This document shows positions 1,276-49,940 of a DNA stretch of 64,000 bases, one piece after another. The translations under genes and the position numbers were made by a program. This stretch comes from an uncultured Gammaproteobacteria bacterium (GTDB lineage Bacteria > Patescibacteriota > Microgenomatia > UBA1406 > GWC2-37-13): positions 24,060 through 88,059 of the forward strand of contig CAYMOO010000001.1 of NCBI GenBank assembly GCA_964392185.1, read 5' to 3'. The notes below the pieces were generated by a model, which did no database searches, had not been told where the DNA came from, and was given only the letters and a program-made list of their open reading frames with translations. The stretch's first letter is position 1. Each line of letters opens with the position of its first letter.

Positions 1276-3639
1276 TTATTTTTTAATACTATGGCCGCCA
1301 AATTGATTGCGCATCGTCGAAAGCAATTTACCCGTATAACTGGGGTTCTTTTCGGAATCTTTTCGGAACTGAAGCGCTCCTTCTATAATTCTTGCCTTAA
1401 CATCTAGATCATTCGCGGCCTCAACCGTCCATGCACCTTCACCCGTATGTGCAACAGTACCCGAAACTTTATCCAGCTCTTCACCATATATTTCAAGACC
1501 ATCCTTAAGCCACCCAATCAAACGCGACTCCACAACCGAACCATGATTGTAAAGGTGAGCTACGTTTCTAAGATCTAATTTATATTTAGCCTTCTTCATA
1601 ATCGCAAAACCTTCGGCGATGGCCTGCATCATCCCGTACTCAATTCCGTTATGCACCATCTTTACAAAGTGCCCAGCACCGATCCCTTCAAAGAACTGCG
1701 TTCCCGACGCCACAGTAAGATCGATATAAAGAGGCGTGAGGTAATCGTAAATTTCCCGCTCACCACCAACCATTATACAAGCACCGTAACGAGCACCTTT
1801 TGGACCTCCGGAGACTCCGGCATCGGCGAACCTTATACCATATTTTTTTATCTTCTTCGCCCTCTCTATTGTGTCTTTGTAATTCGAATTGCCGGCATCG
1901 ATCATTATATCTCCTTTTTCCAAATATTTAACCAATCCGTCGGTACCAAAAATCATCTCGTCAACCGGCCTACCCGAAGGAACCATAATCCAAATGAGTC
2001 TGGGTGGCTTGAGTTGTTCGACTAAAGATTTTATCGTCACAGCAGTCTTTAAGCCGTCTTTTTCTAAGGCTTGAGCAACTTCAAAAGTACGGTTGTAACC
2101 AACTACATTCCAACCCTTTTCAAGAAGTTGCAGTGCAATACCCGTACCCATCTTACCCAAACCAACAACACCTATCGAGTGGTTATTGGCAATGCTATTA
2201 ATATGAGTAGTTGGGGATTCTACCTCGTTAATTATCGATTCGGAATGTTTTTTATAAAGAGATAGAGGAACCGCATTCTCCGCCCATGATTTTATGATCG
2301 GATCGACAAATTTCCACATCGCCAAGACTTCATCGGTACTGACAAACAATATTTGATTACCGCTTATCGCATCAAGAAGTAGCTTTTCATATTCCTCGAC
2401 ATATTGATTCGGATTAACGCGGTTACGGAATCTGTCGGTGAAGCACCGTTCTTCGAGGTCACTAGAAAGTCCGGATTTTTTTGAAAGAAAATTTATCCTA
2501 ATTTCTTCCTTCGGCTCGAGAGAAAAAACAACCTGATTTTTATGGTGACGGCCGCCCGGCGGACAGAGACAAGGCGCAGTGTGCTTGAAAGTGACAACGA
2601 TTTCCTTTTTAGATTTCTTAAGATTCTTACCGTGCTCCAATATTATCGGCACGCCCGCCCATCTTGGAGAATCAATGAATGTTTGTATACGGAAAAATGT
2701 CTCTGTTTTGGAGTCTGTCGCTACTCCAGTTTCGTCTACATAACCCTCATATTGCCCCCGGGAAGTATATTCGACGATTTCCTTTTTCGATAACTGTCTA
2801 ACGTACTTCAAAATAGCAGCTCGCACTTTTCTTACCTCGTCGCCTCCAAACTTACCCGGATGATCCATAGTGACAAGGGCCAACATTTGCATAAGATGAT
2901 TTTGACCCACGTCACGAAGCGCTCCCACACCATCATAAAACTTCCCTCTCGATTCAACCCCAAACACTTCATGCTGACGAATACAAATAGACTCGATATG
3001 GCGGTTATTCCAGGAAGACTCCAATATATTATTGGAAAATCTAAAGGTAAGAATATTCTGCAGCATTTCTTTTGCAAGATAATGATCAATGCGATAAATC
3101 TGTTCTTCCTTAAATAATTTACCCATAAAAAGATCAAGTGACTTTGCCGTTTCCAGATCGTGTCCGAATGGTTTCTCGACCAGAACCCGTGTCCATCCAC
3201 CATCTGGTCCGCAAGGTATCGTAAGACCGGAGCGATCGAGGTTGAGGAATATAGTTTTGTAATATTCGGGAGGTACTGCAAGATAAAACAACTTATTGGC
3301 GCAAGTCTTCCATTCACCATCAATGCGTCCCAAAATTGTCGCGAGCGCTTTGTAGTCGTCAAGGCTGTCAAATTTGCCCGAATGATAGTTTATATACTTA
3401 AAAAAGTCCTCGATAGTTTTTTTATCGGCTTTAATATTTTTGTAAGCTAAAAAATTCTGCATTATATGCAGCTGGAATTCCTCACGGGATATCTTTCGAC
3501 GGGAGAAACCGATAATCTGCATCATCTTGGGTAATTTACCTTTTTGGAAAAGGCGCAACAGTGAGGGGGCGATTTTTTTCGCCATCAGGTCGCCGGTGGC
3601 TCCGAATATTACAAGAATCGTGGGAGTATCTTGTATCAT
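1276..3639 (-). CDS. zwf: Fusion protein: glucose-6-phosphate dehydrogenase (N-terminal) plus short-form 6-phosphogluconate dehydrogenase (C-terminal)
   Basis: Uninterrupted 787-aa ORF. The N-terminal ~480 aa carry G6PD motifs IFGATGDLMAKK, EKPFGHDL and RIDHYLAKE. After the linker IINEVESPTTHINSIANNHS come a Rossmann motif IGVVGLGKMGTGIA and the 6PGDH motif GAGHFVKMVHNGIEYGMMQ. Confidence 0.85.
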   Translation of the reverse strand: MIQDTPTILVIFGATGDLMAKKIAPSLLRLFQKGKLPKMMQIIGFSRRKISREEFQLHIMQNFLAYKNIKADKKTIEDFFKYINYHSGKFDSLDDYKALATILGRIDGEWKTCANKLFYLAVPPEYYKTIFLNLDRSGLTIPCGPDGGWTRVLVEKPFGHDLETAKSLDLFMGKLFKEEQIYRIDHYLAKEMLQNILTFRFSNNILESSWNNRHIESICIRQHEVFGVESRGKFYDGVGALRDVGQNHLMQMLALVTMDHPGKFGGDEVRKVRAAILKYVRQLSKKEIVEYTSRGQYEGYVDETGVATDSKTETFFRIQTFIDSPRWAGVPIILEHGKNLKKSKKEIVVTFKHTAPCLCPPGGRHHKNQVVFSLEPKEEIRINFLSKKSGLSSDLEERCFTDRFRNRVNPNQYVEEYEKLLLDAISGNQILFVSTDEVLAMWKFVDPIIKSWAENAVPLSLYKKHSESIINEVESPTTHINSIANNHSIGVVGLGKMGTGIALQLLEKGWNVVGYNRTFEVAQALEKDGLKTAVTIKSLVEQLKPPRLIWIMVPSGRPVDEMIFGTDGLVKYLEKGDIMIDAGNSNYKDTIERAKKIKKYGIRFADAGVSGGPKGARYGACIMVGGEREIYDYLTPLYIDLTVASGTQFFEGIGAGHFVKMVHNGIEYGMMQAIAEGFAIMKKAKYKLDLRNVAHLYNHGSVVESRLIGWLKDGLEIYGEELDKVSGTVAHTGEGAWTVEAANDLDVKARIIEGALQFRKDSEKNPSYTGKLLSTMRNQFGGHSIKK

Positions 3640-4269: not shown

Positions 4270-5751
4270 ATGGAAAACCAAAAAGTTGTCGTTATCGGCG
4301 CCGGCATTTCTGGCTTGGCAACCGCGGCACTTCTTGGGAAAAATGGCTATAAAGTTACTATTCTGGAAAAAAACGAGGTGATTGGCGGGCGAGCGATGGT
4401 ATTTCGCGAATCGGGATTCACATTCGACATGGGCCCATCCTGGTACACGATGCCCGAAATATTCGACCGTTATTTTTCTCTTTTCAATAAAAAAACCAGT
4501 GACTATTACGTACTTAAAAAACTCGATCCACAACTGAAAGCTTTTTATAGTCTATCACAGAGCATTACTATTCCCGGCAACCTCGAGGGCGCGGTTGCGG
4601 CACTTGAGACCCTTGACCCCGGAATTGCCCCCCGTTTTTATAGTCATCTGGAAAAATCCGGATATATAAAAGAGAAGGCTACCGGAGATTTATTATATAA
4701 ATCCTACGATTCGATTTCCCAACTGATAATGCCTGGGATATTACTTGAAGGAAAAAAACTAGGCATTTACGAATCACTGCATTCCGAAGTTGCCAAAATC
4801 ACTTCCGACCCAAAAGTGCAACAGTTACTAGAATTTCATGCGATGTTTCTGGGTTGTTCACCCTACAACATTCCCGCTCTATATTCACTCATGGACAGCG
4901 TTATTTATAATGATGGCGTATTTTACCCCATGGGAGGAATGTATAAAATAATAAGCGCTTTGGAAAAACTTTGTATAGAAAATAAATGCGAAATAAAGAC
5001 AGCCCAGAATATCAAAAAAATCGCCGTCTCCGCCGGTAATGCCAAATCCGTTATTACTGAGGAGGGTGGCGTATATAGCGCCGACATCGTCGTTTCCTCT
5101 GCCGATTATCCATTCACAGAACTAAAATTATTAGACAAGGAGTGGTGTTCGTATCCGGCGTCATACTGGGAGAAAAAAACAGTCGCGCCTTCGGCATTTA
5201 TAATTTATCTCGGCATAAAGGGTAAAATAAATACTCTCGCACACCATTCCATTTATTTCTCCAGCCACTGGAAATCACATTTCGATTCCATCTTTACCAA
5301 TCCGGACTGGCCCAACGATCCTTCATACTATATTGGTGTGCCGTCCAAAACAGACTCCTCCATAGTCCCCGAAGACTCTGAATCTGTATTTATTTTAGTG
5401 CCGGTTGCTCCGGGCTTGGTCGACTCGGATGAGGTGTGTGATTATTTCGAAAAAAAAATCCTCAACCATTTTTCAAACCTAATAGGTGAATCGCTTAATG
5501 GTAGAATCGTCGTCAAACACATTCTATCTTCACGCGATTATTCCGCTTTATATAATGCATATCAAGGAACAGCCTTTGGGCTATCTCATACAAGATTGCA
5601 GACAGCCATGTTTAGACCGTCCATAAAAAGTAAAAAAGTAGATAATCTATACTATACCGGTCAATACCTTCATCCGGGTATCGGTGTACCGATGTGTCTG
5701 GTCTCGGCGGAGCTGACTGCGGGAAAAATAACCAATGACAAACGCAAATAA
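4270..5751 (+). CDS. crtI: Phytoene desaturase family (CrtI/CrtN-type FAD-dependent desaturase)
   Basis: 493-aa ORF with the N-terminal FAD fold VVVIGAGISGLATAALLGKNGYKVTILEKNEVIGGRA. The C-terminal YYTGQYLHPGIGVPMCLVSAE is typical of CrtI-family desaturases. Confidence 0.85.
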   Translation: MENQKVVVIGAGISGLATAALLGKNGYKVTILEKNEVIGGRAMVFRESGFTFDMGPSWYTMPEIFDRYFSLFNKKTSDYYVLKKLDPQLKAFYSLSQSITIPGNLEGAVAALETLDPGIAPRFYSHLEKSGYIKEKATGDLLYKSYDSISQLIMPGILLEGKKLGIYESLHSEVAKITSDPKVQQLLEFHAMFLGCSPYNIPALYSLMDSVIYNDGVFYPMGGMYKIISALEKLCIENKCEIKTAQNIKKIAVSAGNAKSVITEEGGVYSADIVVSSADYPFTELKLLDKEWCSYPASYWEKKTVAPSAFIIYLGIKGKINTLAHHSIYFSSHWKSHFDSIFTNPDWPNDPSYYIGVPSKTDSSIVPEDSESVFILVPVAPGLVDSDEVCDYFEKKILNHFSNLIGESLNGRIVVKHILSSRDYSALYNAYQGTAFGLSHTRLQTAMFRPSIKSKKVDNLYYTGQYLHPGIGVPMCLVSAELTAGKITNDKRK

Positions 5752-6604
5752 TACCGCAAAAAAAATATTCTCTCGTTCTTCAAATACTTATTTCTATTCT
5801 AGTCTTTTTTTTCCAAAAAAAATCCGGGAAGATATAACAACCCTATACGCATTTGTGAGGACCGCCGACAACTTCGTCGACAGTATTCCGCAAGACTTAT
5901 TAGGCTTCCAAAATCTTAAAAAACAACTATATGCAGCGCTTTCAGGTAAGAGCACCAACAACCTAATAATTGACAACTTCGTCCTTTTGGCTAAAACACA
6001 TAAATTCCAGCTCAACTGGATCGATGCTTTTATGGGAGTAATGGAGCAGGACACCGTGATAAAAAAATATCATAGTTTTGCCGATCTTCAAAAATATATA
6101 TATGGATCGGCAGAGATAATCGGTATCATGATCGCAAAAATTCTCAACTTGCCAAAAGCATCATATCCATTCGCCATGGCGCAGGGTCGGGCGATGCAGT
6201 TTATAAACTTCATAAGAGATATCGATGAGGATTTAACACTTGGTAGAGTTTATATTCCTCAAAAAGATATCGAAAAATTCGGATTGAAATCTTTGAAACC
6301 CACAACACCAAATGAAATCGTCAATTTTCAACGACTAATAAGATACGAGATCGACATATACAGGCGAATGCAAGAAGAGGCTTCCCGGGGATACGATCTA
6401 ATCCCGAGAAAGTATCGAGTGGCGATAAAAACAGCCGCCGATATGTACAAGTGGACAGCCGAAAATATATATAAGAATCTCATGATAGTATTTCAACATA
6501 AAATAAAACCGAACAAGATGCGCGTCGTATTGAATGCTTTACTAAATTTATTGAAAGCATACTCTTCATTCGATATAGATAGACGAAGGATGGTGTTGAC
6601 ATAA
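5735..6604 (+). CDS. crtB: Phytoene/squalene synthase family (CrtB/CrtM)
   Basis: 289-aa ORF overlapping the crtI end by 17 nt. Motifs are YAFVRTADNFVD (first Asp-rich region) and FINFIRDIDEDLTLGRVYIP (second Asp-rich region). Confidence 0.85.
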   Translation: MTNANNTAKKIFSRSSNTYFYSSLFFPKKIREDITTLYAFVRTADNFVDSIPQDLLGFQNLKKQLYAALSGKSTNNLIIDNFVLLAKTHKFQLNWIDAFMGVMEQDTVIKKYHSFADLQKYIYGSAEIIGIMIAKILNLPKASYPFAMAQGRAMQFINFIRDIDEDLTLGRVYIPQKDIEKFGLKSLKPTTPNEIVNFQRLIRYEIDIYRRMQEEASRGYDLIPRKYRVAIKTAADMYKWTAENIYKNLMIVFQHKIKPNKMRVVLNALLNLLKAYSSFDIDRRRMVLT

Positions 6605-6623
6605 TTGTTGACTAAAATAAAAT

Positions 6624-7688
6624 ATGAAAATAGAATCATTCGTAAAAGACAACAAGCCTCGGTTGGAGAATTATCTAACAGAATACTTGAATCACCAAAA
6701 AATACATTCACCAAAAGATCTCCCTTACCTTTCGGAGACTATAGACTTATATTCCCATTTCATACTGAACGGAAAAATGATTCGCGGGCTACTGATTCTT
6801 ATCGGTGCCACAATAAATGGCGATAAACACTCGAATGAAGCCGTCGCGATGGCAGGAGCGATCGAAATTATTCATTCGACTCTTCTCATACATGACGACA
6901 TAATGGACAACGACAGACTTAGACGCGGGAACAAAGCTCTCTTTGCCCATTATGAAGAAAAAGGAGAGTCTGCCCGCGTACTAAACCCTCATTTATATGG
7001 GCAGTCTATGGCGATATGCGTCGGGGATGTGGGATTTTTTTTGGCATATGAGCTTATATCTACGCACTCGGATAATCCAAAAACTACAATCAACCTCATA
7101 AAAATGCTTTCGAGAGAGTTGCAATATGTTGGAGCGATGCAGATGTCCGATGTCGATCTGGGTATGAGACAAACGGAACCTACCGAGGAAGAAATATTAT
7201 CCGTATACCGATATAAAACCGGCCGTTACACTATTTCTCTTCCGTTAACACTTGGGGCAAAACTGACCCGCGCGCCAAAAAATTTGATTTCCTCACTGGA
7301 CTCTTACGGAGAAGATTTGGGCATACTTTTCCAACTTCGCGACGATGAACTATCCATCTTCGGCGGCGAAAATGTCACCGGCAAACCCATAGGCTCCGAT
7401 ATAAGAGAAAATAAAAAAACGTTAATAAGACACCTTTTGTTTAAGTTCGCCAACGAAAGGGAGACTCTGATTCTCAAAACCATTTTTGGCAATAAAGATA
7501 TCGGTAATAAGGAAATAGAAATCGTAAAAAAAATTTTCGACTCCTCCCAGGCAAAAACATTCTTGTCCAATAAGGTAAGCTTGACTTTGAATAACCTACA
7601 TAACAAAATCGATACAATGCCTATAAATACCGATCGGCAGGAACTCCTTCACAGTTTCACCGATTATATAATCACAAGAAATAAATGA
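6624..7688 (+). CDS. Polyprenyl diphosphate synthase (GGPP-synthase-like trans-prenyltransferase)
   Basis: 354-aa ORF. The first Asp-rich motif is LLIHDDIMDNDRLRRG. The second motif region reads FQLRDDELSIFG, so the third Asp of DDxxD is Ser. GKPIGSDIRENKKT lies downstream. Confidence 0.8.
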   Translation: MKIESFVKDNKPRLENYLTEYLNHQKIHSPKDLPYLSETIDLYSHFILNGKMIRGLLILIGATINGDKHSNEAVAMAGAIEIIHSTLLIHDDIMDNDRLRRGNKALFAHYEEKGESARVLNPHLYGQSMAICVGDVGFFLAYELISTHSDNPKTTINLIKMLSRELQYVGAMQMSDVDLGMRQTEPTEEEILSVYRYKTGRYTISLPLTLGAKLTRAPKNLISSLDSYGEDLGILFQLRDDELSIFGGENVTGKPIGSDIRENKKTLIRHLLFKFANERETLILKTIFGNKDIGNKEIEIVKKIFDSSQAKTFLSNKVSLTLNNLHNKIDTMPINTDRQELLHSFTDYIITRNK

Positions 7689-8374
7689 AATATGAATATC
7701 TAATATTCGACCTGTTAATTTTCATATCTCCTTTTATTGCAAAATACTTCTTCGTCAAACTTAATTTCCCTGATTTGAAGCGGACAATTATATCGACAAT
7801 AATAACCGCCTCTATATTTACAATCTGGGATAACCTTGTGGTGGGATATTTTTGGGAATTTAACCCACAATATATAACGGGAATATATTTGCTTCGATTA
7901 CCATTGGAAGAGTGGGTTTTCTTTTTAGTCGTACCTTACGCCTGTCTATTTATTTGGCAAAATTTAGAAAACCGTTTCAATGATTCGAGTCTCCCTGATT
8001 ACTATCAAAGGACACTCATTATACTTCTGTTGTTACTTAGTGTTTGGTTTTTTATAGATAAAAAACTATATACTTCATCCGACCTTTTTATTTTTTCTAT
8101 CGTGATATGGCTCGATATGTTATTGCAAACCAACCTCATCTTTACCATAAAGGGACTATTATTCACAATAATTACTTTAATTCTCACCTTCGTATTCAAC
8201 TACTATCTGACAGCAAGACCAGTGGTCTTGTACGCGCCGGAAATGAAAACAAATATAAATTTTATCTCTATACCTGTCGAAGATTTTATATTCGGATTGT
8301 CATTAATGTATCTGGAAGTAATTATCTATATAAAATCTTTGGAAAAATCACGCGGGGGAAAAATGACTACTTAA
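7685..8374 (+). CDS. Lycopene cyclase domain protein (fused CrtYc/CrtYd-type)
   Basis: 229-aa polytopic membrane ORF with an ATGA overlap onto the upstream synthase. It has two halves, each with the PxE(E/D) motif of heterodimeric-type lycopene cyclases (RLPLEEWVFF and IPVEDFIFG). Confidence 0.7.
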   Translation: MKYEYLIFDLLIFISPFIAKYFFVKLNFPDLKRTIISTIITASIFTIWDNLVVGYFWEFNPQYITGIYLLRLPLEEWVFFLVVPYACLFIWQNLENRFNDSSLPDYYQRTLIILLLLLSVWFFIDKKLYTSSDLFIFSIVIWLDMLLQTNLIFTIKGLLFTIITLILTFVFNYYLTARPVVLYAPEMKTNINFISIPVEDFIFGLSLMYLEVIIYIKSLEKSRGGKMTT

Positions 8375-36278: not shown

Positions 36279-37019
36279 ATGATCCAAACATACCAAACTA
36301 CACTAACAGAAAAAAAAGAGCTTGTGCCCGAAGTATGGTACTTTAAATTCGTAATTCCTGAAACCCAAGAGCTTCAATACACAGCCGGACAATATATGAT
36401 TCTTTTTGTACCTCAGCCCGAAGGGCATTCGGTCAGACGATTATATTCGGTTCTATCCGCACCGCAAGGACAAAAATTTTTTGAACTAGTAATTAAACTC
36501 GTTCCTGGCGGTATCGCCTCAGAATACTTAAAAACCCTCACGGTTGGCTCTCGCGCCACATTTCAAGGTCCGGCAGGCGTGTTTACACTTAATCCGGGTG
36601 TTGGTCCAAAAGTTTTTTTTGCAACCGGTACCGGAATAACACCCATGCTCAGCATCATAGAGAAATACCTACCAGAGGTGCCTGCCGAAGAACATTTTTA
36701 TCTTTATTGGGGAATGCGTACTAAGACAGAAATGTATTTTCAAGACAAACTTATAGAGCTCGCAAAGAAATACCCTAATTTTCATCTAAAATATTGTCTT
36801 TCCAGAGAAACTGGATTGGAATCTATGTCAGAAATAGAGAGACCATACTGTGCTCTAGGTAGGGTAACTGCCGGATTTGAAGCCGATTTTAAAAACCAAG
36901 CAGAGCTCACAAAAGCACACTACTATATATGTGGTGGGCGGGATGCGGTTGAGACTTTACGCCAAATTTTGACTGAAAAACAAATCCCCAAGGAGCTCGT
37001 ACATTTCGAAAAATTCTAA
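36279..37019 (+). CDS. Ferredoxin-NADP reductase-like FAD/NAD(P)-binding oxidoreductase
   Basis: 246-aa ORF with the FAD motif RRLYSV (RxYS) and the NAD(P) motif FFATGTGITPMLS. Confidence 0.75.
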   Translation: MIQTYQTTLTEKKELVPEVWYFKFVIPETQELQYTAGQYMILFVPQPEGHSVRRLYSVLSAPQGQKFFELVIKLVPGGIASEYLKTLTVGSRATFQGPAGVFTLNPGVGPKVFFATGTGITPMLSIIEKYLPEVPAEEHFYLYWGMRTKTEMYFQDKLIELAKKYPNFHLKYCLSRETGLESMSEIERPYCALGRVTAGFEADFKNQAELTKAHYYICGGRDAVETLRQILTEKQIPKELVHFEKF

Positions 37020-38536: not shown

Positions 38537-38854
38537 ATGGCCGTAATTCATAGTGATCAAAATACATTCAAAAAAGATGTTTTGGAGGCTAAAAAGCCTG
38601 TTTTTGTTGATTTTTACGCTGAGTGGTGCGGACCTTGCAAGATGACATCTCCGATAATAGATGAGCTTTCGGAAGAAATTAAAGAGGTAACATTCGTAAA
38701 AGTAGACGTAGACAGCAATCAAGACCTAGCATCACAATATTCGGTTTTTTCCATTCCTACCTTTATGATATTCAAAGGAGGAAATGCCGTACACCAGTTT
38801 GTCGGCGCCATGGGAAAAGAAAAATTCATCGAAGAAATAAAAAAGGCAGGATAA
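38537..38854 (+). CDS. trxA: Thioredoxin
   Basis: 105-aa ORF with the WCGPC active site and VDVD...IPT(F) context. Confidence 0.9.
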   Translation: MAVIHSDQNTFKKDVLEAKKPVFVDFYAEWCGPCKMTSPIIDELSEEIKEVTFVKVDVDSNQDLASQYSVFSIPTFMIFKGGNAVHQFVGAMGKEKFIEEIKKAG

Positions 38855-39307
38855 TCAATAAAATCTTCCGATCTCGCGATTTAACACTCTTTTCATAAAT
38901 TTTAGTACGCCTTCATGGGTTTTGCTAAATTGGTGCTTTGTTTGCTCCATAATATAAAAGCTCAGAGTTCCTAGCCACCTGACAGATTCGTGCACTGGTT
39001 GCTTCATGGCGGTTGGTATTTTGTTTTGACTCATAGGTAGCTTTACCGTGTGATAATTGGGGAATTTAACAGCCGCATCTGATCTTACTCCGGCTTTTGC
39101 GATATCAGGCGCGATATTGGGAACGTCGGGCTTCTCTTCAACATATTGCTTAACCTGAGAATCTTCTATTTTATGCTCGACGACTTCACTCAGCGAAACC
39201 ATTTCTTGCCGTCGCACCGGCTCGGCCTCCGCCGAGGAGTGACTACTAGCGGAGTAGTTGGCAATTTTTAGCGGTGTGCTGTTTGGTTTTCTGTTGTCGT
39301 CATTCAT
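38855..39307 (-). CDS. Hypothetical protein (second gene of the riboswitch-controlled pair)
   Basis: 150-aa ORF on the same strand, 30 nt downstream of the 445-aa ORF. No motif recognised. Confidence 0.4.
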   Translation of the reverse strand: MNDDNRKPNSTPLKIANYSASSHSSAEAEPVRRQEMVSLSEVVEHKIEDSQVKQYVEEKPDVPNIAPDIAKAGVRSDAAVKFPNYHTVKLPMSQNKIPTAMKQPVHESVRWLGTLSFYIMEQTKHQFSKTHEGVLKFMKRVLNREIGRFY

Positions 39308-39337
39308 TAAGTTATTATATCTAAATCGGACGTTCGA

Positions 39338-40675
39338 TTAATCACAATCTATATTCGTCTTCTCTTTGAACTCATCTTTTGTCAAACCACATGTGGGGCA
39401 TATCTCGATGCCGTATCCTGACGGTATCGGACAGCCGCAACCACCGAATACAAAATCCGGACAATGAAAATGATCCTCAAGACTATTACAACCAGGAACT
39501 CCGCAAATTGAAAATAGTCCCGCTCCCAATAATCTAGTCATCTCATTTTGATACAATCTGCCGAATGATGACCAACTGTTTAACCCGTACTGATAGTCAC
39601 CATTGCTGGAAGATAAAAATCTATCGAGCGACCCAGCACTAACACTATTTCCTCCACATGATCCGGCAAGCTCTAACATCTGTATATTATTTATCTGTGC
39701 AAAATATTTCATGGTTAAAAAATACGCGTCGTCGACTATTTTTTGGGACCATCTCGAGTTGTCAGATATCTTAAGATCTGAAATTACCTTTTCAACAATC
39801 ATTTCTTTATGGTCCATCCCTTCGTATGCATCTCCGAACTTATCCCGTAATGAATCACTGATGGCCGCCACTGTAAAATGTTCATTGAAATGATTGGTGT
39901 AGCCAACCCTATCTCCGAATTCGTCTTTGATGGTATCCAAATAATCATTAACATCTAAGCCTGTTACAGCCGGTTGCCGCAAATACCAAAGTACTTTCGA
40001 GGATTTTATAACCTCTTCATCCGAAAAATCCGCTCTTAATTTTCCCAAACGAGATAATTCGAAAAAATACTCGTCTATGTAATCTGGCGGAGTGTGAGAA
40101 ATACCGAAACGATTCAAAATATCTACGCTTAAATCTTCTGCCGACCAAGTAACTGCTGAAGAATAGACTATATCTTTGGCGATGTCGTAATAGAGATGGT
40201 AAAACTGTGTTGTGTTGTATTCGATTTTATTAAATTCATTATGTGGATCGTCATCATAACCAGCTTTTCCGGGCAAACTCAAAGACAAAATCATTTTTCC
40301 CGGATTGAGCTTAGCCAGTCTGGTGCTCTCCCTGAATGCTTGAAGAGGTAAACCACCACGTTCTCCCAAATCGAACTGTTTCGCCATGGACGATTCCTCT
40401 GACCGATTTTGATTGCTGTAGACGTTGAAATAATCCGGATATTTATTTCCATAATACATCTGAAACACCGGCGAAACGGATTCATCTTTAAGAACTTCGT
40501 GTGTGAGAAAGTTAAGGTTTGCGATCAGCTCATTTCTGGCATCCTCAGCCGAATTTTCAGCAACGGTAGCTAATCTAAGGGATTCCTTTTTCCCGTCAAA
40601 ACCATAACGAACTAAGGCATCTATCATAAGATTCCCTGTACGGGGATATACACAAGGTTCGGTCTTCGGACTCAT
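39338..40675 (-). CDS. Hypothetical 445-aa protein with C-terminal Cys/His-rich metal-binding cluster, directly downstream of a cobalamin riboswitch
   Basis: It has no signal peptide. The C-terminus reads CGVPGCNSLEDHFHCPDFVFGGCGCPIPSGYGIEICPTCG. No family is recognised. The GAGG Shine-Dalgarno lies 9 nt upstream of the ATG, inside the riboswitch expression platform. Confidence 0.55.
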   Translation of the reverse strand: MSPKTEPCVYPRTGNLMIDALVRYGFDGKKESLRLATVAENSAEDARNELIANLNFLTHEVLKDESVSPVFQMYYGNKYPDYFNVYSNQNRSEESSMAKQFDLGERGGLPLQAFRESTRLAKLNPGKMILSLSLPGKAGYDDDPHNEFNKIEYNTTQFYHLYYDIAKDIVYSSAVTWSAEDLSVDILNRFGISHTPPDYIDEYFFELSRLGKLRADFSDEEVIKSSKVLWYLRQPAVTGLDVNDYLDTIKDEFGDRVGYTNHFNEHFTVAAISDSLRDKFGDAYEGMDHKEMIVEKVISDLKISDNSRWSQKIVDDAYFLTMKYFAQINNIQMLELAGSCGGNSVSAGSLDRFLSSSNGDYQYGLNSWSSFGRLYQNEMTRLLGAGLFSICGVPGCNSLEDHFHCPDFVFGGCGCPIPSGYGIEICPTCGLTKDEFKEKTNIDCD

Positions 40676-40679
40676 ACTT

Positions 40680-40815
40680 ATTTGCCTCGAGTTTACGAGA
40701 GACTAATAAGTACACACCGCTGCGTCACAGTTCGGGATTCACACCCGATTCCCATTTGTCACGCCTAAATTTGGCGCGATCAGTCTTCCCGTTCGTCTAA
40801 GAGGCGAACAGTGAC
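40680..40815 (-). promoter_or_regulatory. Cobalamin (B12) riboswitch
   Basis: The minus strand at 40753-40715 reads GGGAAUCGGGUGUGAAUCCCGAACUGUGACGCAGCGGUG. It matches nearly position for position the conserved core of the E. coli btuB leader as I recall it (GGGAAUCCAGUGCGAAUCUGGAGCUGACGCGCAGCGGU). The 3' platform is a two-tier helix in which 40705-40711 pairs with 40676-40682 and 40696-40700 pairs with 40685-40689. This helix sequesters the GAGG Shine-Dalgarno. B12-related genes lie immediately upstream. Confidence 0.7.
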
Positions 40816-40817
40816 TG

Positions 40818-41357
40818 TCAACCTTGGTTACTAATGTTTAATCTACTTAATAACTTCGAACTTACGCTGTCTGCGAACTTTAATCCATAAAATAAACCGA
40901 AAGAAAAAAATAGATCGCCAATTAAATTATTTCTAAAAAAAGGAATTCCCATAACATAAGAGCTTATGAGCCCTTGAGTGTTTTTAGCATAAATAGTGCC
41001 AGTGGACCATACGCCGTAATTTGTTATAAGAAAAAACAATACGGAAGATGTTAGGGAATATCCAACCAGCTTGGACAACGAAGGGTTGGCTTTTAACATT
41101 ATTCCCAACATAATCACGATTAAAAAACTGCCGTAAACGTAGGGAATTGTCGCATGCAAACCAATAATCAAATCGGAAACAATCATCGCAACTAACGGAA
41201 CCAAAAACTTTGCTTTACCGCTAAAATGAGCTCCGCTGAACAAAGCCAGAGCCGCAATCGGAGTAAAATTCGGGGGGTGAGGAATGACACGTGCGACAAT
41301 TGCCCCTATAATAAAAACTCCCATCAATATTGGTGAAAATTTTCTCTTATTAAACAT
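40818..41357 (-). CDS. Small polytopic membrane protein (ECF S-component-like/DUF6580-like), candidate corrinoid uptake component
   Basis: About 179 aa from the ATG at 41357 (MFNKRK). The ORF-track start overlaps the upstream gene. It has 5-6 TM helices and an IPHPPNFTPIAALALFSG motif. The functional suggestion rests on context only (pduO and DUF4430 upstream, B12 riboswitch downstream). Confidence 0.5.
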   Translation of the reverse strand: MFNKRKFSPILMGVFIIGAIVARVIPHPPNFTPIAALALFSGAHFSGKAKFLVPLVAMIVSDLIIGLHATIPYVYGSFLIVIMLGIMLKANPSLSKLVGYSLTSSVLFFLITNYGVWSTGTIYAKNTQGLISSYVMGIPFFRNNLIGDLFFSFGLFYGLKFADSVSSKLLSRLNISNQG

Positions 41358-41365
41358 AAAATTTA

Positions 41366-41782
41366 TTAATAATATTCCAATTTCCATTCGACCACGTCTC
41401 CGTCCTTCAATATATAACTTCCCGCACCAACTTCCGCTTGCTTTCCATTCACGTAAAATGCCCAAAATTCTCTAGACGCATCTTTTGCTTCGCGACCGTT
41501 TATGGCGGTGATAAATGAATTAGCACCTTCACCCTTCTTCGCGATCTTCGATGCTGATGCAAGTAGATCAAGTGCGTTTGTGCCCGGCTTGACTGCCGAT
41601 TCGCCCAGATCGGTTTTTATTTTTTTAGATTCAATAATTCTCTGGGTGACCTTGATCGTGTTTGTTTTTTCTTTTTTTTCTGTCTTTAAAATTGCTTTAT
41701 TATCACCAAGGTCGCTATGGTAGGCAAAATAACCGACACCGATAAGAATTAATAAAGCAATTACGACTAGATTTCGCTTCAT
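41366..41782 (-). CDS. DUF4430 domain protein (transcobalamin-like beta domain), membrane-anchored
   Basis: 138-aa ORF with an N-terminal TM helix. The C-terminal FITAINGREAKDASREFWAFYVNGKQAEVGAGSYILKDGDVVEWKL matches the DUF4430 pattern (W.y.vNG....ga....l.dGD.i.w). Confidence 0.65.
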   Translation of the reverse strand: MKRNLVVIALLILIGVGYFAYHSDLGDNKAILKTEKKEKTNTIKVTQRIIESKKIKTDLGESAVKPGTNALDLLASASKIAKKGEGANSFITAINGREAKDASREFWAFYVNGKQAEVGAGSYILKDGDVVEWKLEYY

Positions 41783-41786
41783 GGAT

Positions 41787-42302
41787 TTAGGTAATGAATT
41801 CTCGGCCTTTATTATACCATCTCGCCAAAGTAAACAAAAAATCCGAAAGCCTATTCATATACTGCACAATGTGCTCTCCATTACCTTTCAGGTCTTTGGC
41901 ATAAACAACAACCACCGATCGCTCGGCACGACGACATACTCCACGCACGATGTGTAACCTGGACGACGCCTCACTCCCACCGGGAAGAATAAATCTGTTG
42001 AGCTTCGGAAGGGCCTTCTCCATTTTGTCTATCTTGGTTTCGAACTCAACCGCTCGTGAATTAAGCACGACAACCGATTGCTTCGACCCGGCTATGACAG
42101 CCATGACAAGATATAGGTCTTTTTGCACTTCCGTGAGAAAAACCTGCATATCACTATCAAGTGGCAGGCTTGCCCAACCCAAGAAGCTCGTCAACTCATC
42201 TATTTGCCCACCCGCCTCTATCCTCGCATCGGCTTTAGAGACCCTTTCTCCGCCAAACAAGGCGGTTGTCCCGTCATCGCCAGTTTTTGTATATATAGGC
42301 AT
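41787..42302 (-). CDS. pduO: ATP:cob(I)alamin adenosyltransferase, PduO type
   Basis: 171-aa ORF with the N-terminal IYTKTGDDGTTALFGGERVSK signature and RRAERS. Confidence 0.85.
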   Translation of the reverse strand: MPIYTKTGDDGTTALFGGERVSKADARIEAGGQIDELTSFLGWASLPLDSDMQVFLTEVQKDLYLVMAVIAGSKQSVVVLNSRAVEFETKIDKMEKALPKLNRFILPGGSEASSRLHIVRGVCRRAERSVVVVYAKDLKGNGEHIVQYMNRLSDFLFTLARWYNKGREFIT

Positions 42303-42352: not shown

Positions 42353-44752
42353 TCAACACGCCGCATAACCACAGGCATAACATTTACTACAACCCTCTTC
42401 ATTGGCCAAAGTTGAGTTACCGCATTCGGGACAAAGATCAAAGTGAGCGGGCATCGCTGCTTGGGCAACGGGTGCCTGAATGCTCTGACTTGCCAATTGG
42501 GCTTGTTTCGGTGCCTGATCTGCTACAACGGCGTGTCCATTACTTTGACCATTTGTCGCCGCACCATTGTTCATTTTTTGCATCTGTTGTTGGCGTGAAA
42601 AATGCATCATGAGAACTTTGGCGATCGCGTCCGGCAAACTGAGAATCCTCGACTTACCAAAACCCATCGCTCTCGCGCCGCCAATACCCTGCATTTGTCT
42701 AACGATCTCAGTAACTCTTTCTTGGGGGGATAAATGCGATGCGAAACGTAAAGCTACAGAAATCACCCTCCCCATACCTTCCGCCATCGCGTTTACATCG
42801 GTTCCGGCCTTACCGACAGTGATGAAAACTTCGTTCGGTTCGCCTTCATCGCTAGTATTTATGGTTATAAAGGCTGTGCCAACCGGTGTGCCAATCTTAT
42901 AAGTCGAGCCATGGACGACCATCGGTCTGGGCTTGACCATGTATTTCGGCTCTTCTTTTTTCTTCTCTTCTTTCTTGTCTTCTATCTTTGACAAAACACC
43001 CTCCCGTGAGCCATCACGCATATAAGTGACGCCTTTTAATCCTAATTTATAAGCTAAATTATATAGACGCTTCACATCTTCGACCGTATGGTTATTGGGT
43101 GCATTACACGTTTTGGATATAGATGCATCAACATATTTCTGAATAGCTCCCTGAACGCGCACATGATCTTCCGGGGTCAGATCGTTTGCGCTTACGAACC
43201 ATTCCGGCTTCTTAAGCATTCCCGCTCTCACTTCCGCCTCGTGTTTCTTGTACCATTCTTCAAAAAGATGGTGTCTTATAATGTGCTCACCGATACGGTC
43301 GCGACGAATAAACTCAAACTCATAAACCGGCTCTATGCCTGAAGTGGTACCGGACATAAGCGAGGTGGAACCCGTCGGAGCCTGCATAAGTAACAAAGAA
43401 TTCCTGATACCTTGCTTTTTAATGCCGTCTTTTATGTCTTCCGGTAGCTGAGAAATAAACTGACCTTCCACGAATTTCTTTGCTTCGAATTTCCCGAAAG
43501 ACCCTTTTTCAGCACCGACTTCAACCGATGCTCTGTAAGCTTCGTCTCTTATTGTGCTATAAACTTTTTCGATAAATTGCAAAGACTCTTCCGAACCGTA
43601 ACGCATGTGGAGTTTTATAAGCGCGTCACCTATTCCCATCGTGCCTAGACCTATTCTTCTCTCCCCTTCCAACTGCGTCTTGCGGATGCCATCAAAAATA
43701 TAAGGATCCATGTCGATGACATTATCTTGGAAACGGACAGCGGTGCGGACAATTTTTCTCAACGTTTTGAAATCGAAGTGACCTTTTTTGTCAATACTCG
43801 ATGAGACAACCAAAGCTGAAAGATTTATCGAGCCAAGGTTGCAAACTCCCCAGGAAGGTAGCGGCTCTTCGCCACAGGGGTTGGTAGCGTTTATCTTATT
43901 CCAATAGTAATTATTGTAAAGCTTGTTACAACGCTCCATAAATACAACTCCTGGTTCGGCCGACTTCCAGGCGGCTTCGGCAATCATATCCCATATCTTT
44001 CTTGCTTTGACGATTTTGTGAACATTAATTTTCTTGCCCAACTTTTTCCATGTATTAATGTCACCATCCCATTTTTCATCGTATTCAGGATCATGAGTGT
44101 CAGGAAAAACCAGCGGCCAATCAGCGTCTTCTTCGACAGCTTTCATAAATGTATCAGATACACAAACGGAGAGATTGGCACCTAGAATACGACGCAAATC
44201 TTGTTTGACGGTTATAAATTCTTCAAGATCCGGATGCCAGTCCCATATCATGAGCATAAGCGCGCCACGTCTTGTACCGCCTTGCTGAATAATATCGCGT
44301 GTGGCAACGGAAAAGAGCTCCGCCCAGTTCATCGGGCCAGAAGAATAACCATTGACTTTTTCGACCCGCATACCTCTTGGCCTTAAAGAAGAAAGATTGA
44401 AGCCGACACCGCCACCATGGGCCATAATTTCAACCATTTGCTTTAATGTGTCGAGAATCCCACCGCGAGAATCCTTGGGTGATGGAATAACAAAACAGTT
44501 ATAGTAGGTAACCTTATATCCGGTACCGGCACCGGCTAGAATTCTTCCTCCCGGAACATACTTAAAATCTTTCATGGCAAAATAAAATTCTTTTTCCCAT
44601 TTTTTTCTTTCTTTTGGCTTTTCCAGCTCAGCGACCGCTTTGGCGACACGTTTCCACATTTCATCTGGTGTTTTTTCTTGTGGTTCACCTTTCTTGTTTT
44701 TTAACGAATAGCGATCGAGAAAGACTTTTTGCGAGATACCCGTGAGTTTCAT
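42353..44752 (-). CDS. nrdJ: Adenosylcobalamin-dependent (class II) ribonucleotide reductase
   Basis: 799-aa ORF with the active-site region NPCGEEPLPSWGVCNLGSINL. It has a Gln/Ala-rich insertion and a C-terminal zinc ribbon CPECGNSTLANEEGCSKCYACGY. Confidence 0.9.
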   Translation of the reverse strand: MKLTGISQKVFLDRYSLKNKKGEPQEKTPDEMWKRVAKAVAELEKPKERKKWEKEFYFAMKDFKYVPGGRILAGAGTGYKVTYYNCFVIPSPKDSRGGILDTLKQMVEIMAHGGGVGFNLSSLRPRGMRVEKVNGYSSGPMNWAELFSVATRDIIQQGGTRRGALMLMIWDWHPDLEEFITVKQDLRRILGANLSVCVSDTFMKAVEEDADWPLVFPDTHDPEYDEKWDGDINTWKKLGKKINVHKIVKARKIWDMIAEAAWKSAEPGVVFMERCNKLYNNYYWNKINATNPCGEEPLPSWGVCNLGSINLSALVVSSSIDKKGHFDFKTLRKIVRTAVRFQDNVIDMDPYIFDGIRKTQLEGERRIGLGTMGIGDALIKLHMRYGSEESLQFIEKVYSTIRDEAYRASVEVGAEKGSFGKFEAKKFVEGQFISQLPEDIKDGIKKQGIRNSLLLMQAPTGSTSLMSGTTSGIEPVYEFEFIRRDRIGEHIIRHHLFEEWYKKHEAEVRAGMLKKPEWFVSANDLTPEDHVRVQGAIQKYVDASISKTCNAPNNHTVEDVKRLYNLAYKLGLKGVTYMRDGSREGVLSKIEDKKEEKKKEEPKYMVKPRPMVVHGSTYKIGTPVGTAFITINTSDEGEPNEVFITVGKAGTDVNAMAEGMGRVISVALRFASHLSPQERVTEIVRQMQGIGGARAMGFGKSRILSLPDAIAKVLMMHFSRQQQMQKMNNGAATNGQSNGHAVVADQAPKQAQLASQSIQAPVAQAAMPAHFDLCPECGNSTLANEEGCSKCYACGYAAC

Positions 44753-44765
44753 AAAAATTGAAAAT

Positions 44766-45212
44766 TTATAATATTTTTTTTAATTCCTTTTGGAATTCTT
44801 CCACATCGAGAAATCTTCTAAACACCGAAGCGAATCTAATATATGCAACTTTGTCTATGGATTTGAGGTTGGTCGCTACCATGTCCCCTATCGCCTGACT
44901 ATCAACCTCGGCTTCTTCTCTCTGCGTTATCTCGGTTTCTATTGCGTCAATAATTCTTTCTACCTGTTCTGCCGAAACGGTTGTTTTTTCAACCGAACGA
45001 ATCACGCCGGCTCTTATTTTGTCACGGTTGAAGCGTTCGCGTCTGCCGTCACGTTTTATCACCAAGATCGGCAACTCCTCTATTCGTTCGTACGTAGTGA
45101 ATCTTTTTTTGCAAGACGCACAGGTGCGTCTTCTTCTGATTGTGCGTCCGTCTTCCGACGCTCTCGTTTCGATTACCTCGGTTTCGATGTTTTTACAAAA
45201 TAAACAGTGCAT
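44766..45212 (-). CDS. nrdR: Transcriptional repressor NrdR
   Basis: 148-aa ORF with the zinc ribbon MHCLFCKN...CASCKKRFTTYE, followed by an ATP-cone (VIKRDGRRERFNRDKI). Confidence 0.9.
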   Translation of the reverse strand: MHCLFCKNIETEVIETRASEDGRTIRRRRTCASCKKRFTTYERIEELPILVIKRDGRRERFNRDKIRAGVIRSVEKTTVSAEQVERIIDAIETEITQREEAEVDSQAIGDMVATNLKSIDKVAYIRFASVFRRFLDVEEFQKELKKIL

Positions 45213-45240
45213 CTTGAAAAAAATTCAGACCTATTCCAAC

Positions 45241-45288
45241 ATAATTTATATAGTGTCACATACAAGACTAAAACACTAATGGTATGAA
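45241..45288. promoter_or_regulatory. Two candidate NrdR boxes upstream of nrdR-nrdJ
   Basis: ATAATTTATATAGTGT (45241-45256) has a right half that perfectly matches the acaCwAtATaTwGtgt consensus. ACACTAATGGTATGAA (45273-45288) has a matching left half. The start-to-start spacing is 32 bp, as expected for tandem NrdR boxes. Both boxes are degenerate. Confidence 0.35.
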
Positions 45289-45395
45289 TGCAAGATATCA
45301 AAATCTCTTTTAAATACATCAGTTTTTCTACACATTTTTTAAACATTAAATATTTTTACTTATCCGACAATCTAAAGTTGATATAATATAAACCT

Positions 45396-46031
45396 ATGAA
45401 CAAAAAACAGCTAAACAACAGTCTAAAACGAATTCTATATCTGATACAACAAGCTGGGACACTTATGTTATTTCCTCGAACCCATATACGCTCGCTCGGC
45501 AACACATTTGACACAGTCGCTTCACATAGTCACCATGTGGCGGTGATTTGCTACTGTATTTGCCGCATGGAGGGGTTGAGTCACGAAGAAGCAATCAACG
45601 GGGTAGCAATGGCGGTATTTCACGATTTGGCGGAAGCCCGTACGGGCGATTTGGATTTTGTCGCCAAACATTACGGTAAAGTTGACGAGAAAAAAGCAAT
45701 CGATGATCAGTTCTCCGGCACGCCTTTCGTAGAAGATCTCACAAAAATGATGGATGAGTATAATGCGCGAGAGTCGTGGGTGTCCAAATGCACAAAAGAC
45801 GCCGATAGTTTGGCACAGATGTTTGCCGAATGGGTTCTTATGTGGCAGGGAAACAAACTCGCTGGAAAATGGTTTGAGTCGGACTACAAAGACAGATTGC
45901 CCGCCTTCAAAACAGAATCAGCGAGGCGGTTGGCTCTCGCTATGAAGGATAGTAATCCGCATGAATGGTGGTGGAGCCAGTTTATGCAAAATGATGTCGC
46001 GATTGATAAAGAAAAATTGACGGGAAAATAA
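45396..46031 (+). CDS. HD-domain phosphohydrolase (YfbR-like 5'-nucleotidase family)
   Basis: 211-aa ORF with VASHSHHVAVICY (H) and FHDLAEARTGDL (HD...D) metal-binding motifs. Confidence 0.75.
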   Translation: MNKKQLNNSLKRILYLIQQAGTLMLFPRTHIRSLGNTFDTVASHSHHVAVICYCICRMEGLSHEEAINGVAMAVFHDLAEARTGDLDFVAKHYGKVDEKKAIDDQFSGTPFVEDLTKMMDEYNARESWVSKCTKDADSLAQMFAEWVLMWQGNKLAGKWFESDYKDRLPAFKTESARRLALAMKDSNPHEWWWSQFMQNDVAIDKEKLTGK

Positions 46032-48665: not shown

Positions 48666-49940
48666 ATGAAAATCGCTATTCTTGGGGGAGGCTACACAGG
48701 GCTTACCGCGGCATATTATCTTAAAAAATCCAACCATGAGGTTCATATCTTTGAGCGCTTGCCAGCGTTGGGCGGGCTCGCATCCGGATTCAACTCAGGC
48801 AAGTGGGAATGGCCGCTTGAGAGAGCCTATCATCATCTTTTCGCCTCTGACAATGATATTTTGGATTTTGCCAAAGAGATAGGTTTTAATAAAATTTACT
48901 TTCGTGCCCCTCATACAGATTCTCTTTACAAAGTCGAAGATAATTACCGCATATTTCCCTTAGATACTCCGCAAGATTTTATGAAATTTCCCTTGCTGAC
49001 TTTTTGGGAAAAGATAAGAGCTGCGTTGGTAATTGTATTTCTCCGCTTTTCGCCTCACTTAAAAATATACGAAAAGACCCCTGCCAAAGATTTTCTGATG
49101 AAAACAATGGGGGAGAAATGCTGGCAAGTGTTATGGGAACAACTCTTTCGGAAAAAATTCGGTAAATACGCGGAAAATGTTCTTATGTCTTTTTTCTGGG
49201 CAAGAATCTCCAAAAGAACTAAAAATTTAGGCTACATGGGGGGCGGCTTTCAGGCTTTCACCGACTTTCTGGAAAACAAAGTGGGGTCGATGGGGGCTAA
49301 AATACACAAGAACGCTACAATAAAAAAAATATCAAAAAATGGTGGTGACTATAACCTGGAGATCGAAGGAAGAAGCGAAACATTCGATATTGTCATATCC
49401 ACTCTGCCAACTCCGGTTCTGACCATTCTAGCCAAGGAAATATTTCCGGAAAACTACATCCAAAAACTAAATAAGCTCAAATACTTGAACGCGCTGGTAC
49501 TTATATTGGAAACCCGCACACCTATCCTAAAATCGACTTACTGGCTAAATATTTCAACTCCTGATATACCAATGATGTTTGTTGGGCAACATACCAACTT
49601 TGTCGATCCCAAACACTATGGGCAAGCCAATATAGCTTATATTGGATATTACCTTAAGGAAGATGATAAATTGATGGCGATGTCCAAAGAAGAGTTGATC
49701 GAATATCTCAAGCCATATCTTAAAAATATCAGTGGGTCTGACCTGGATATCACCGATTCTTATCTCTGGAAAGCGCCTTTCGCGCAACCCATATTCGACT
49801 CGGATTTCGCCATAAGCAAGCCCGACTTCAAGACACCACTCAATAATTTTTATGTCGCCAATTTGGATATGACTTACCCTTACGATAGGGGAACTAATTA
49901 TGCTGTTGCATTGGGAAAAAAGGTGGCTACGATGATATAA
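48666..49940 (+). CDS. NAD(P)/FAD-dependent oxidoreductase (amine-oxidase/protoporphyrinogen-oxidase-like fold)
   Basis: 424-aa ORF with the N-terminal dinucleotide fold MKIAILGGGYTGLTAAYYLKKSNHEVHIFERLPALGGLA. Confidence 0.7.
   Translation: MKIAILGGGYTGLTAAYYLKKSNHEVHIFERLPALGGLASGFNSGKWEWPLERAYHHLFASDNDILDFAKEIGFNKIYFRAPHTDSLYKVEDNYRIFPLDTPQDFMKFPLLTFWEKIRAALVIVFLRFSPHLKIYEKTPAKDFLMKTMGEKCWQVLWEQLFRKKFGKYAENVLMSFFWARISKRTKNLGYMGGGFQAFTDFLENKVGSMGAKIHKNATIKKISKNGGDYNLEIEGRSETFDIVISTLPTPVLTILAKEIFPENYIQKLNKLKYLNALVLILETRTPILKSTYWLNISTPDIPMMFVGQHTNFVDPKHYGQANIAYIGYYLKEDDKLMAMSKEELIEYLKPYLKNISGSDLDITDSYLWKAPFAQPIFDSDFAISKPDFKTPLNNFYVANLDMTYPYDRGTNYAVALGKKVATMI

Follow-up and report, generated by a model that had tools for sequence, protein, structure and literature searches.

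The window analysed here, a 64,000-nucleotide (nt) stretch of contig CAYMOO010000001.1 (positions 24,060 to 88,059), carries on its minus strand a cobalamin (B12) riboswitch directly followed by the gene of a protein that we designate X and by a smaller open reading frame (ORF). Upstream on the same strand lie genes for a DUF6580 membrane protein, a DUF4430 protein, a PduO-type cobalamin adenosyltransferase, the class II ribonucleotide reductase (RNR) NrdJ and the repressor NrdR, while a thioredoxin gene converges on the small ORF from the other side (Table 1). An earlier sequence-only reading of this DNA had put forward the riboswitch and its two genes as a candidate for a new B12-responsive system. 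This proposal is supported: the riboswitch call stands, and no characterised family unrelated to B12 was found for X, which very likely serves a new function in B12 starvation.

An Rfam scan of the whole window at gathering thresholds gave three matches, two of them to tRNAs and the third to the Cobalamin riboswitch model RF00174. The latter match is full-length (model positions 1-189) and reaches 42.9 bits, where the gathering score is 31.5 (E 1.8e-7), which bears out the earlier call of a B12 riboswitch ahead of the gene pair. The aptamer starts 18 nt past the stop codon of the DUF6580 gene and ends 13 nt ahead of the AUG at 40627, and the Shine-Dalgarno (SD) sequence forms the 3' arm of a platform hairpin between aptamer and AUG. 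By its score, its position 5' of X on the same strand and its platform, the RNA is an ordinary member of the known cobalamin riboswitch class (RF00174, clan CL00101). On the minus strand no intrinsic terminator was found between the aptamer and the AUG, ruling out transcription termination as the switch mechanism, and the stretch from the DUF6580 stop codon to the aptamer showed no promoter of the sigma-70 type. Since neither promoter nor terminator surrounds the aptamer, X may be read from the nrdJ operon transcript in this genome, with the riboswitch working on translation.

The architecture points to a translational OFF switch under which X would be made only at low adenosylcobalamin (AdoCbl); the aptamer is called AdoCbl-type, and both corrinoid binding and an expression response are predicted. 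In published models of corrinoid riboswitches, effector-stabilised hairpins at the ribosome-binding site repress and are coupled to the aptamer through an L5-L13 kissing loop (PMC10653944). A 3-bp UGC/GCA pairing between L5 (UGCCG) and the hairpin loop (GAGCA) is possible in 17 of the loci described below, with covariation that could not be established. The window departs at both candidate partners, having UGACG in L5 (about 40710-40714) and GUACA in the loop (40637-40641), and the change is not compensatory.

The position of the aptamer also bears on the gene model of X. The sequence-only reading described a 445-aa protein followed 30 nt later by a 150-aa protein; the longest ORFs (39338-40675 and 38855-39307, both on the minus strand) and the gap are as claimed, but the start of X most likely lies at ATG 40627, giving 429 aa. 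This assignment is made because ATG 40675 falls within the conserved 3' strand of the aptamer (AUGAGUCCGAAGACC; …AAGUAUGAGUCCGAAGACC…) and because homologues begin at the equivalent residue: they start about 14-16 nt past their own aptamers, and the alignment opens at ATG 40627 (MIDALVRYGFD versus MAETLVLYGFD), the next in-frame ATG, which has AGGGA ahead of it. Residues of X are numbered from this start. The public 445-aa gene call begins in the aptamer (40628-40675), and several homologue calls likewise overlap aptamers (e.g. those at loci L007 and L015). An exact lookup of the 445-aa product returned no record.

X had no match in Pfam-A, NCBIfam, PHROGs, PADLOC or PDB sequences. Only two relatives came from a word-indexed search of 5.8 billion proteins, and an exhaustive HMM search of 1.84 billion cluster representatives gave 101 at E<=1e-3 and 59 at E<=1e-10, with lengths mostly of 350-440 aa. 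When 88 family members were compared with Pfam one by one, even at E<=5 only weak, sub-threshold zinc-ribbon matches appeared, all in the C-terminal tail; the family profile against PDB sequences recovered only ribosomal and other zinc ribbons, and a scan of viral contigs found no relative. One family record is titled "hypothetical protein [Patescibacteria group bacterium]", and four of five matches in species-representative genomes are titled Candidatus Roizmanbacteria. As judged from these searches, X represents a family not described before, which has so far been met only in records of the Patescibacteria type. The sequence-only reading had recognised no family for either protein of the pair, and profile and fold searches placed neither in a characterised one.

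Conserved positions in X include E89-R90 (ERGG), S117-P118-x-G120 (YSPPGPA in most members), Y143, P219, Y302 and G322-S-C324-G-G, as well as R357 (SSxxR), which lies within the flexible linker 344-374. C324 is the sole Cys in the 374-residue core of the window protein; the other eight are within the last 55 residues, where the dense C-terminal Cys/His cluster noted earlier is indeed present. In this tail C389, C397, C410 and C413 are invariant or nearly so, and a Cys at or next to the C-terminus is also conserved. The tail of the window protein ends in Cys428; in most members the tail is a simple CxxC...CxxC with a Cys at the end. By the criterion of two CxxC (or CPxC) knuckles 15-25 residues apart, the tail counts as a zinc ribbon, for which metal binding is predicted. 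The protein is acidic and, as had been stated, has no transmembrane (TM) helix (top Kyte-Doolittle 19-residue window, 1.14), so that on sequence grounds it looks cytoplasmic.

The follow-up proposed earlier, an AlphaFold model of X searched with Foldseek, gave a confident model without a convincing structural match. With the 88-sequence alignment, AlphaFold2 reached a mean pLDDT of 88.6 and a pTM of 0.77, whereas a 3-sequence alignment was unusable (pLDDT 41). The model comprises an alpha/beta core (residues 1-343), a low-confidence linker (344-374) and a small beta-rich C-terminal domain. Foldseek returned a best E of 0.038 in PDB, with TM-scores below 0.2, and a best E of 0.023 in BFVD; the partial matches were faint and PAS-, GAF- or dCache-like only. 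Judged provisionally against PDB and BFVD, the modelled core appears to have no detectable structural relative. Among specific candidates, GATase_3 (the CobB/CobQ-type glutamine amidotransferase, suggested by a GxCGG motif) was rejected, as there was no profile match in the 88 members and no conserved core His after C324. PanD-like, pyruvoyl self-processing at GSC was rejected as well, since some members have another residue instead of the Ser (GACGG, GGCGG, GSNC) but keep the Cys, and no fold match was found. For RNR classes I-III, no Pfam match appeared in the 88 members at E<=5 and no RNR was among the Foldseek PDB matches.

X loci, referred to by L numbers, were gathered by exact-protein lookup, a scan of species-representative genomes and a metagenome scan, and near-identical loci were collapsed into about 22 lineages with upstream DNA (L025 and L031 have none). 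In 20 of these lineages a CL00101 aptamer scoring above its gathering score stands directly upstream of X; one lineage has a sub-threshold match and one a degenerate element. This answers the question, raised earlier, of whether homologues across Patescibacteria are preceded by RF00174. Above-threshold aptamers were found in the window, L001, L002/L003, L004, L007, L010, L011, L013, L014, L015, L016 and L018, and at 16 of the 20 metagenome loci (L020-L024, L026-L029, L032-L038). Scores upstream of the homologues range from 31.9 to 60.5 bits, and at two loci the match is to RF01689, also a CL00101 model, and not to RF00174. The sub-threshold match (L019, 25.2 bits) is in the expected place. In the L017/L030 lineage the aptamer is not recognisable, and B12-box-like remnants with an intact CCCC-GAGCA-GGGA hairpin are kept (L030 3200-3470, L017 1-230), so this switch may be decaying or highly divergent.

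The lineages that pair the riboswitch with X span X identities down to about 20%, and the association is far beyond chance. The platform motif, CCC(C)-GAGCA-GGGA-N(2-9)-AUG, is nearly invariant across 18 distinct X loci. RNAalifold folds it into a 3-bp CCC/GGG consensus stem, without covariation because the stem sequence does not vary.

Gene order around X is also recurrent, usually running [NrdR, NrdJ], PduO, (DUF4430), (DUF6580), riboswitch, X and small protein, then the convergent thioredoxin. PduO is found upstream of X wherever enough upstream sequence is available, lone-X loci excepted, and adjoins the riboswitch in L011, L014, L015 and L019. In four lineages (L018/L035-37, L020/21, L032, L033), X and its riboswitch occur alone in unrelated neighbourhoods, with neither the small ORF nor thioredoxin nor PduO nearby. 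Because of these lone-X loci, X appears to be the core of the riboswitch unit. The two genes had earlier been treated as one pair; the small protein is a frequent partner of X but not an obligatory one. The L014 record (CAZGYB010000001.1) is titled "uncultured Gammaproteobacteria bacterium", and its locus (NrdR, NrdJ, PduO, riboswitch, X, small protein, thioredoxin, PIN_5) matches those of Patescibacteria; the Gammaproteobacteria label on this record is probably wrong.

Comparison of the window with L004 disclosed an exchange at the X position. The proteins around it are closely related (NrdR 95%, Xer 92%, NrdJ 89% and thioredoxin 79% identity), and the flanks show a gradient of divergence (PduO 70%, small protein 62%, DUF6580 49%), with DUF4430 at 68%. 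By BLASTP, the two X proteins are alignable over 16 tail residues only, and DNA similarity breaks exactly across 40882-39188 (L004 8428-10117). The L004-type protein constitutes a second subfamily with full-length homology to the window type (hhalign probability 99.7%, E 2e-25). Since the flanks are syntenic while X itself has diverged to the second subfamily, the sequences indicate that X was exchanged at one site between deeply diverged subfamilies, behind the same kind of riboswitch.

The small partner protein has no Cys and no TM helix; its N-terminus is acidic and variable, and a C-terminal segment is conserved (P104, S108, R110-W111-L112). No match above cut-off was found for it in the curated families of Pfam, NCBIfam, PHROGs and PADLOC, nor did PDB sequences yield one, and the absence of cysteine rules out a radical SAM or NrdG-like role. 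Homologous small ORFs hold the equivalent position in most X loci. In the window, the small ORF and the thioredoxin gene meet stop codon to stop codon without a spacer (38854/38855), and the two genes co-occur at every locus having either. On account of these abutting ends and this co-occurrence, the small protein may belong with thioredoxin and not with X.

Table 1. Features of the X locus and its flanking genes in the window.
Feature	Position	Strand	Remarks
Cobalamin riboswitch aptamer, RF00174	40640-40799	-	long peripheral hairpin; directly 5' of X
Expression platform	40625-40645	-	CCCC (40645-40642)-GUACA-GGGA (40636-40633), then AUG 40627-40625
Protein X	39338-40627	-	429 aa; ~340-aa core, linker 344-374, Cys/His domain 375-429
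C-terminal Cys/His module of X, predicted zinc ribbon	39341-39505	-	residues 375-429: 8 Cys, 2 His
Small partner protein	38855-39307	-	150 aa; begins 30 nt after X
Thioredoxin	38537-38854	+	Pfam above gathering score; convergent with small ORF
DUF6580 membrane protein	40818-41357	-	Pfam E 2.3e-48; multi-helix, hydrophobic; weakly like ECF S-component
DUF4430 protein	41366-41782	-	Pfam E 7e-21; N-terminal hydrophobic anchor
PduO-type cobalamin adenosyltransferase	41787-42302	-	Pfam E 4e-52
Class II (B12-dependent) RNR NrdJ	42353-44752	-	89% identical to L004 protein with Ribonuc_red_lgN/lgC + TSCPD
NrdR repressor	44766-45212	-	L004 synteny

The class II RNR and the PduO adenosyltransferase recognised in the sequence-only reading are both present, and the Pfam matches of PduO, DUF4430, DUF6580 and thioredoxin are all above gathering score. 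As had also been stated, no corrin biosynthesis genes were found among the approximately 30 window ORFs scanned or matched by synteny. The controlled unit was correctly described insofar as X and the small ORF are downstream of the switch, but the DUF4430 and DUF6580 genes directly upstream had been missed. These two, probable parts of a corrinoid uptake system, are not gated by the riboswitch because they are located upstream of it. NrdJ C-termini in the window (42353-42440) and at other loci carry the pattern FDxCPxCG…EEGCxKCYxCGYxxC after a long low-complexity linker.

NrdR-box-like motifs stand 45-72 nt upstream of nrdR; they form a tandem, ACCATTAGTG and ACACTATATA, about 27 nt apart (45240-45290), that is kept in most related loci. 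A low-power motif scan of the 400 nt ahead of X detected no such motif at any of 22 loci, compared with one in five of seven nrdR upstream regions, and the idea of an NrdR box belonging to X itself was rejected on this basis. Divergent from nrdR and conserved in L004 is a gene for an HD-domain YfbR-like 5'-deoxynucleotidase (45396-46031, plus strand), which probably takes part, next to the RNR operon, in deoxynucleoside triphosphate (dNTP) homeostasis. A Fre/FNR-like flavin reductase (FAD_binding_6 + NAD_binding_1; 36279-37019, plus strand) is syntenic near the cluster in L004, L005, L006 and L039 and is a possible electron source for cobalamin reduction. Farther away, a row of carotenoid-type genes on the plus strand (4270-8374) encodes a CrtI-like amine oxidase, a phytoene/squalene synthase, a polyprenyl synthase and a lycopene cyclase, and a further CrtI-like gene lies at 48666-49940 (plus strand); such genes seem unusual for a Patescibacteria-like genome. 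A single 787-aa ORF (1276-3639, minus strand) fuses glucose-6-phosphate dehydrogenase and 6-phosphogluconate dehydrogenase domains.

With regard to function, the riboswitch serves as a built-in label: a family that keeps a B12 sensor across deep divergence almost certainly does something that counts only under B12 shortage. By elimination, functions repressed by such a riboswitch without corrin synthesis come down to uptake, cytoplasmic corrinoid handling or a B12-independent substitute, and without a TM segment X is unlikely to be a membrane transporter itself. The visible B12 economy in the conserved clusters consists of one class II RNR, one adenosyltransferase and the putative uptake pair. 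A corrinoid-salvage role is proposed because X is usually embedded in this cluster of NrdR, NrdJ, PduO, DUF4430 and DUF6580. X is also found, together with its riboswitch, at sites that are not near nrdJ and lack NrdR boxes, which suits a B12-centred role better than a dNTP-centred one. Repeated PduO adjacency and the absence of an RNR domain or fold and of an NrdR box tilt further towards corrinoid handling. The sequence-only reading had offered either corrinoid acquisition, remodelling or chaperoning, or a B12-independent backup; on the whole the evidence leans to the former, in the cytoplasm.

Our preferred reading, which we hold tentatively and rate at somewhat under an even chance, is that X is a starvation-induced cytoplasmic protein for corrinoid capture or processing that feeds PduO and NrdJ. 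At low AdoCbl, the SD hairpin would no longer repress, and X, with its small partner where present, would be translated. X could then capture imported corrinoid or process it chemically, for instance through reduction or through a thiol-dependent loss of the upper ligand, and would hand it on to PduO and NrdJ. C324 and the tail Cys, carried on a swinging zinc ribbon, might act as a redox or ligand pair, possibly re-reduced by the adjacent thioredoxin, and the small protein could be an accessory subunit.

Several observations weigh against this corrinoid-handling role. The sequence, profile and Foldseek searches gave no homology or fold evidence linking X to corrinoid binding or chemistry: X lacks a DxHxxG motif and a Rossmann-like B12 domain, and it does not resemble CblC, BtuM or PduS. 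Riboswitch control does not extend to PduO or to the putative uptake genes, so a core salvage step would be regulated unlike its neighbours. The thioredoxin gene is convergent and not co-transcribed, and it follows the small ORF, not X. The loci all belong to a single part of the tree of bacteria, so that their conserved synteny is partly shared ancestry. Finally, the OFF direction is read from the architecture, and activating corrinoid riboswitches exist (PMC10653944). The same fact would allow an ON switch, or a relic, with X either B12-dependent or unrelated to B12, and the L017/L030 lineage has lost a recognisable aptamer yet keeps X and the hairpin. We consider this hardly probable at all, as an SD sequence in the 3' arm of a conserved hairpin right after the aptamer is a repressing architecture, and the persistence of above-threshold aptamers in 20 lineages at such divergence of X argues for sustained selection on the switch.

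The remaining alternatives differ in the function given to X. X, with or without the small protein, might sustain deoxyribonucleotide supply while NrdJ is idle, through a non-RNR fold with a new reductase or salvage activity. Repression of B12-independent isozymes is a classic logic of B12 riboswitches, NrdJ is the only B12-dependent enzyme seen in the X clusters, and X has an adjacent thioredoxin and, like NrdJ, a zinc-ribbon tail with a Cys at its end. Even so, we regard this bypass as rather unlikely: X has no RNR Pfam domain and no Foldseek match to the RNR barrel, only a single conserved core Cys, no P-loop seen by eye in the window protein and no NrdR-box-like motif upstream, and at 350-440 aa it is far smaller than any known RNR catalytic subunit. 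The bolder form, in which X with or without its partner would be an enzyme of unprecedented fold that replaces or bypasses RNR and gives minimal-genome Patescibacteria a B12-independent supply of DNA precursors, is very improbable.

The resemblance between the tails of X and NrdJ could point to a maintenance factor, X and the small protein loading AdoCbl, releasing damaged cofactor or shuttling reducing equivalents when cofactor is scarce, much as two-subunit reactivases or G-protein chaperones serve other AdoCbl enzymes. The large-plus-small layout adjoining nrdJ, pduO and the thioredoxin gene, and an expression apparently confined to low AdoCbl, are in keeping with such a role. It is nonetheless unlikely, given that X shows no ATPase or GTPase motif or fold and that in several lineages X stands alone, with neither nrdJ nor the small protein nearby. 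Nucleic-acid binding is common among zinc ribbons, and these are the only, weak, family matches of X, which would also suit a starvation regulator or checkpoint, that is, a zinc-ribbon factor binding nucleic acid or protein that slows replication or growth or re-programmes expression on B12 failure. The swapping of X between distant subfamilies in syntenic genomes points the same way, core enzymes being exchanged like this less often than accessory or regulatory genes. We find this role quite improbable, since the 340-aa core, in which Ser, Cys, Arg and Tyr residues are invariant, is more suggestive of an enzyme or a ligand pocket and no DNA-binding domain was detected. In view of the visible B12 economy of the clusters, X is regarded as a strong candidate for a step that is missing from bacterial corrinoid handling and, less likely, for a bypass of B12-dependent DNA precursor synthesis. 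With a defined ligand, a regulatory RNA and a small gene set, the question is open to direct in vitro testing.

Comparison with known systems starts from the regulons in which B12 riboswitches classically repress B12-independent isozymes (metE; nrdAB, nrdEF, nrdDG). As in these, the X locus has a cobalamin riboswitch directly 5' of a protein that appears cytoplasmic, a class II RNR as the visible B12 user and predicted expression at low AdoCbl; unlike their products, X has no RNR or MetE domain or fold, and it has no NrdR box of its own. CblC/MMACHC and BtuM carry out thiol- or Cys-dependent decyanation and dealkylation. The proposed corrinoid handling ahead of PduO-type adenosylation would resemble theirs, with the single core Cys of X as candidate ligand or nucleophile, but X has no sequence or structural similarity to them in the libraries searched and appears soluble, whereas BtuM is a membrane protein. 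Cys-rich tails of RNRs carry reducing equivalents from thioredoxin, and in both NrdJ and X a flexible low-complexity linker leads to a CxxC...CxxC pattern with a further Cys at or close to the C-terminal end; this likeness is in pattern only, the rest of the two proteins being unrelated. The reactivases DdrAB and PduGH offer a further parallel as large-plus-small gene pairs adjoining an AdoCbl enzyme and an adenosyltransferase, but X has neither the ATPase fold nor the motif, and some lineages dispense with its small partner.

Orphan families found in the neighbourhood of B12 genes have proven to be corrinoid enzymes or binders before: published reports describe CbiR in cobamide remodelling (PMC7733943) and DUF4465 proteins as B12 binders (PMC13398666). 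These precedents come from other taxa and concern different families, and X matches no Pfam model. A literature search returned nothing relevant on DUF6580, on cobalamin riboswitches in the candidate phyla radiation (CPR) or on RNR in Roizmanbacteria. The nearest analogies to X, namely CblC/BtuM processing, repressed isozymes and reactivases, are functional only, and in each case X lacks the defining features that were checked. What the sequence comparisons add to these systems is a B12-riboswitch regulon whose predicted effector is an undescribed protein family, outside all curated families searched.

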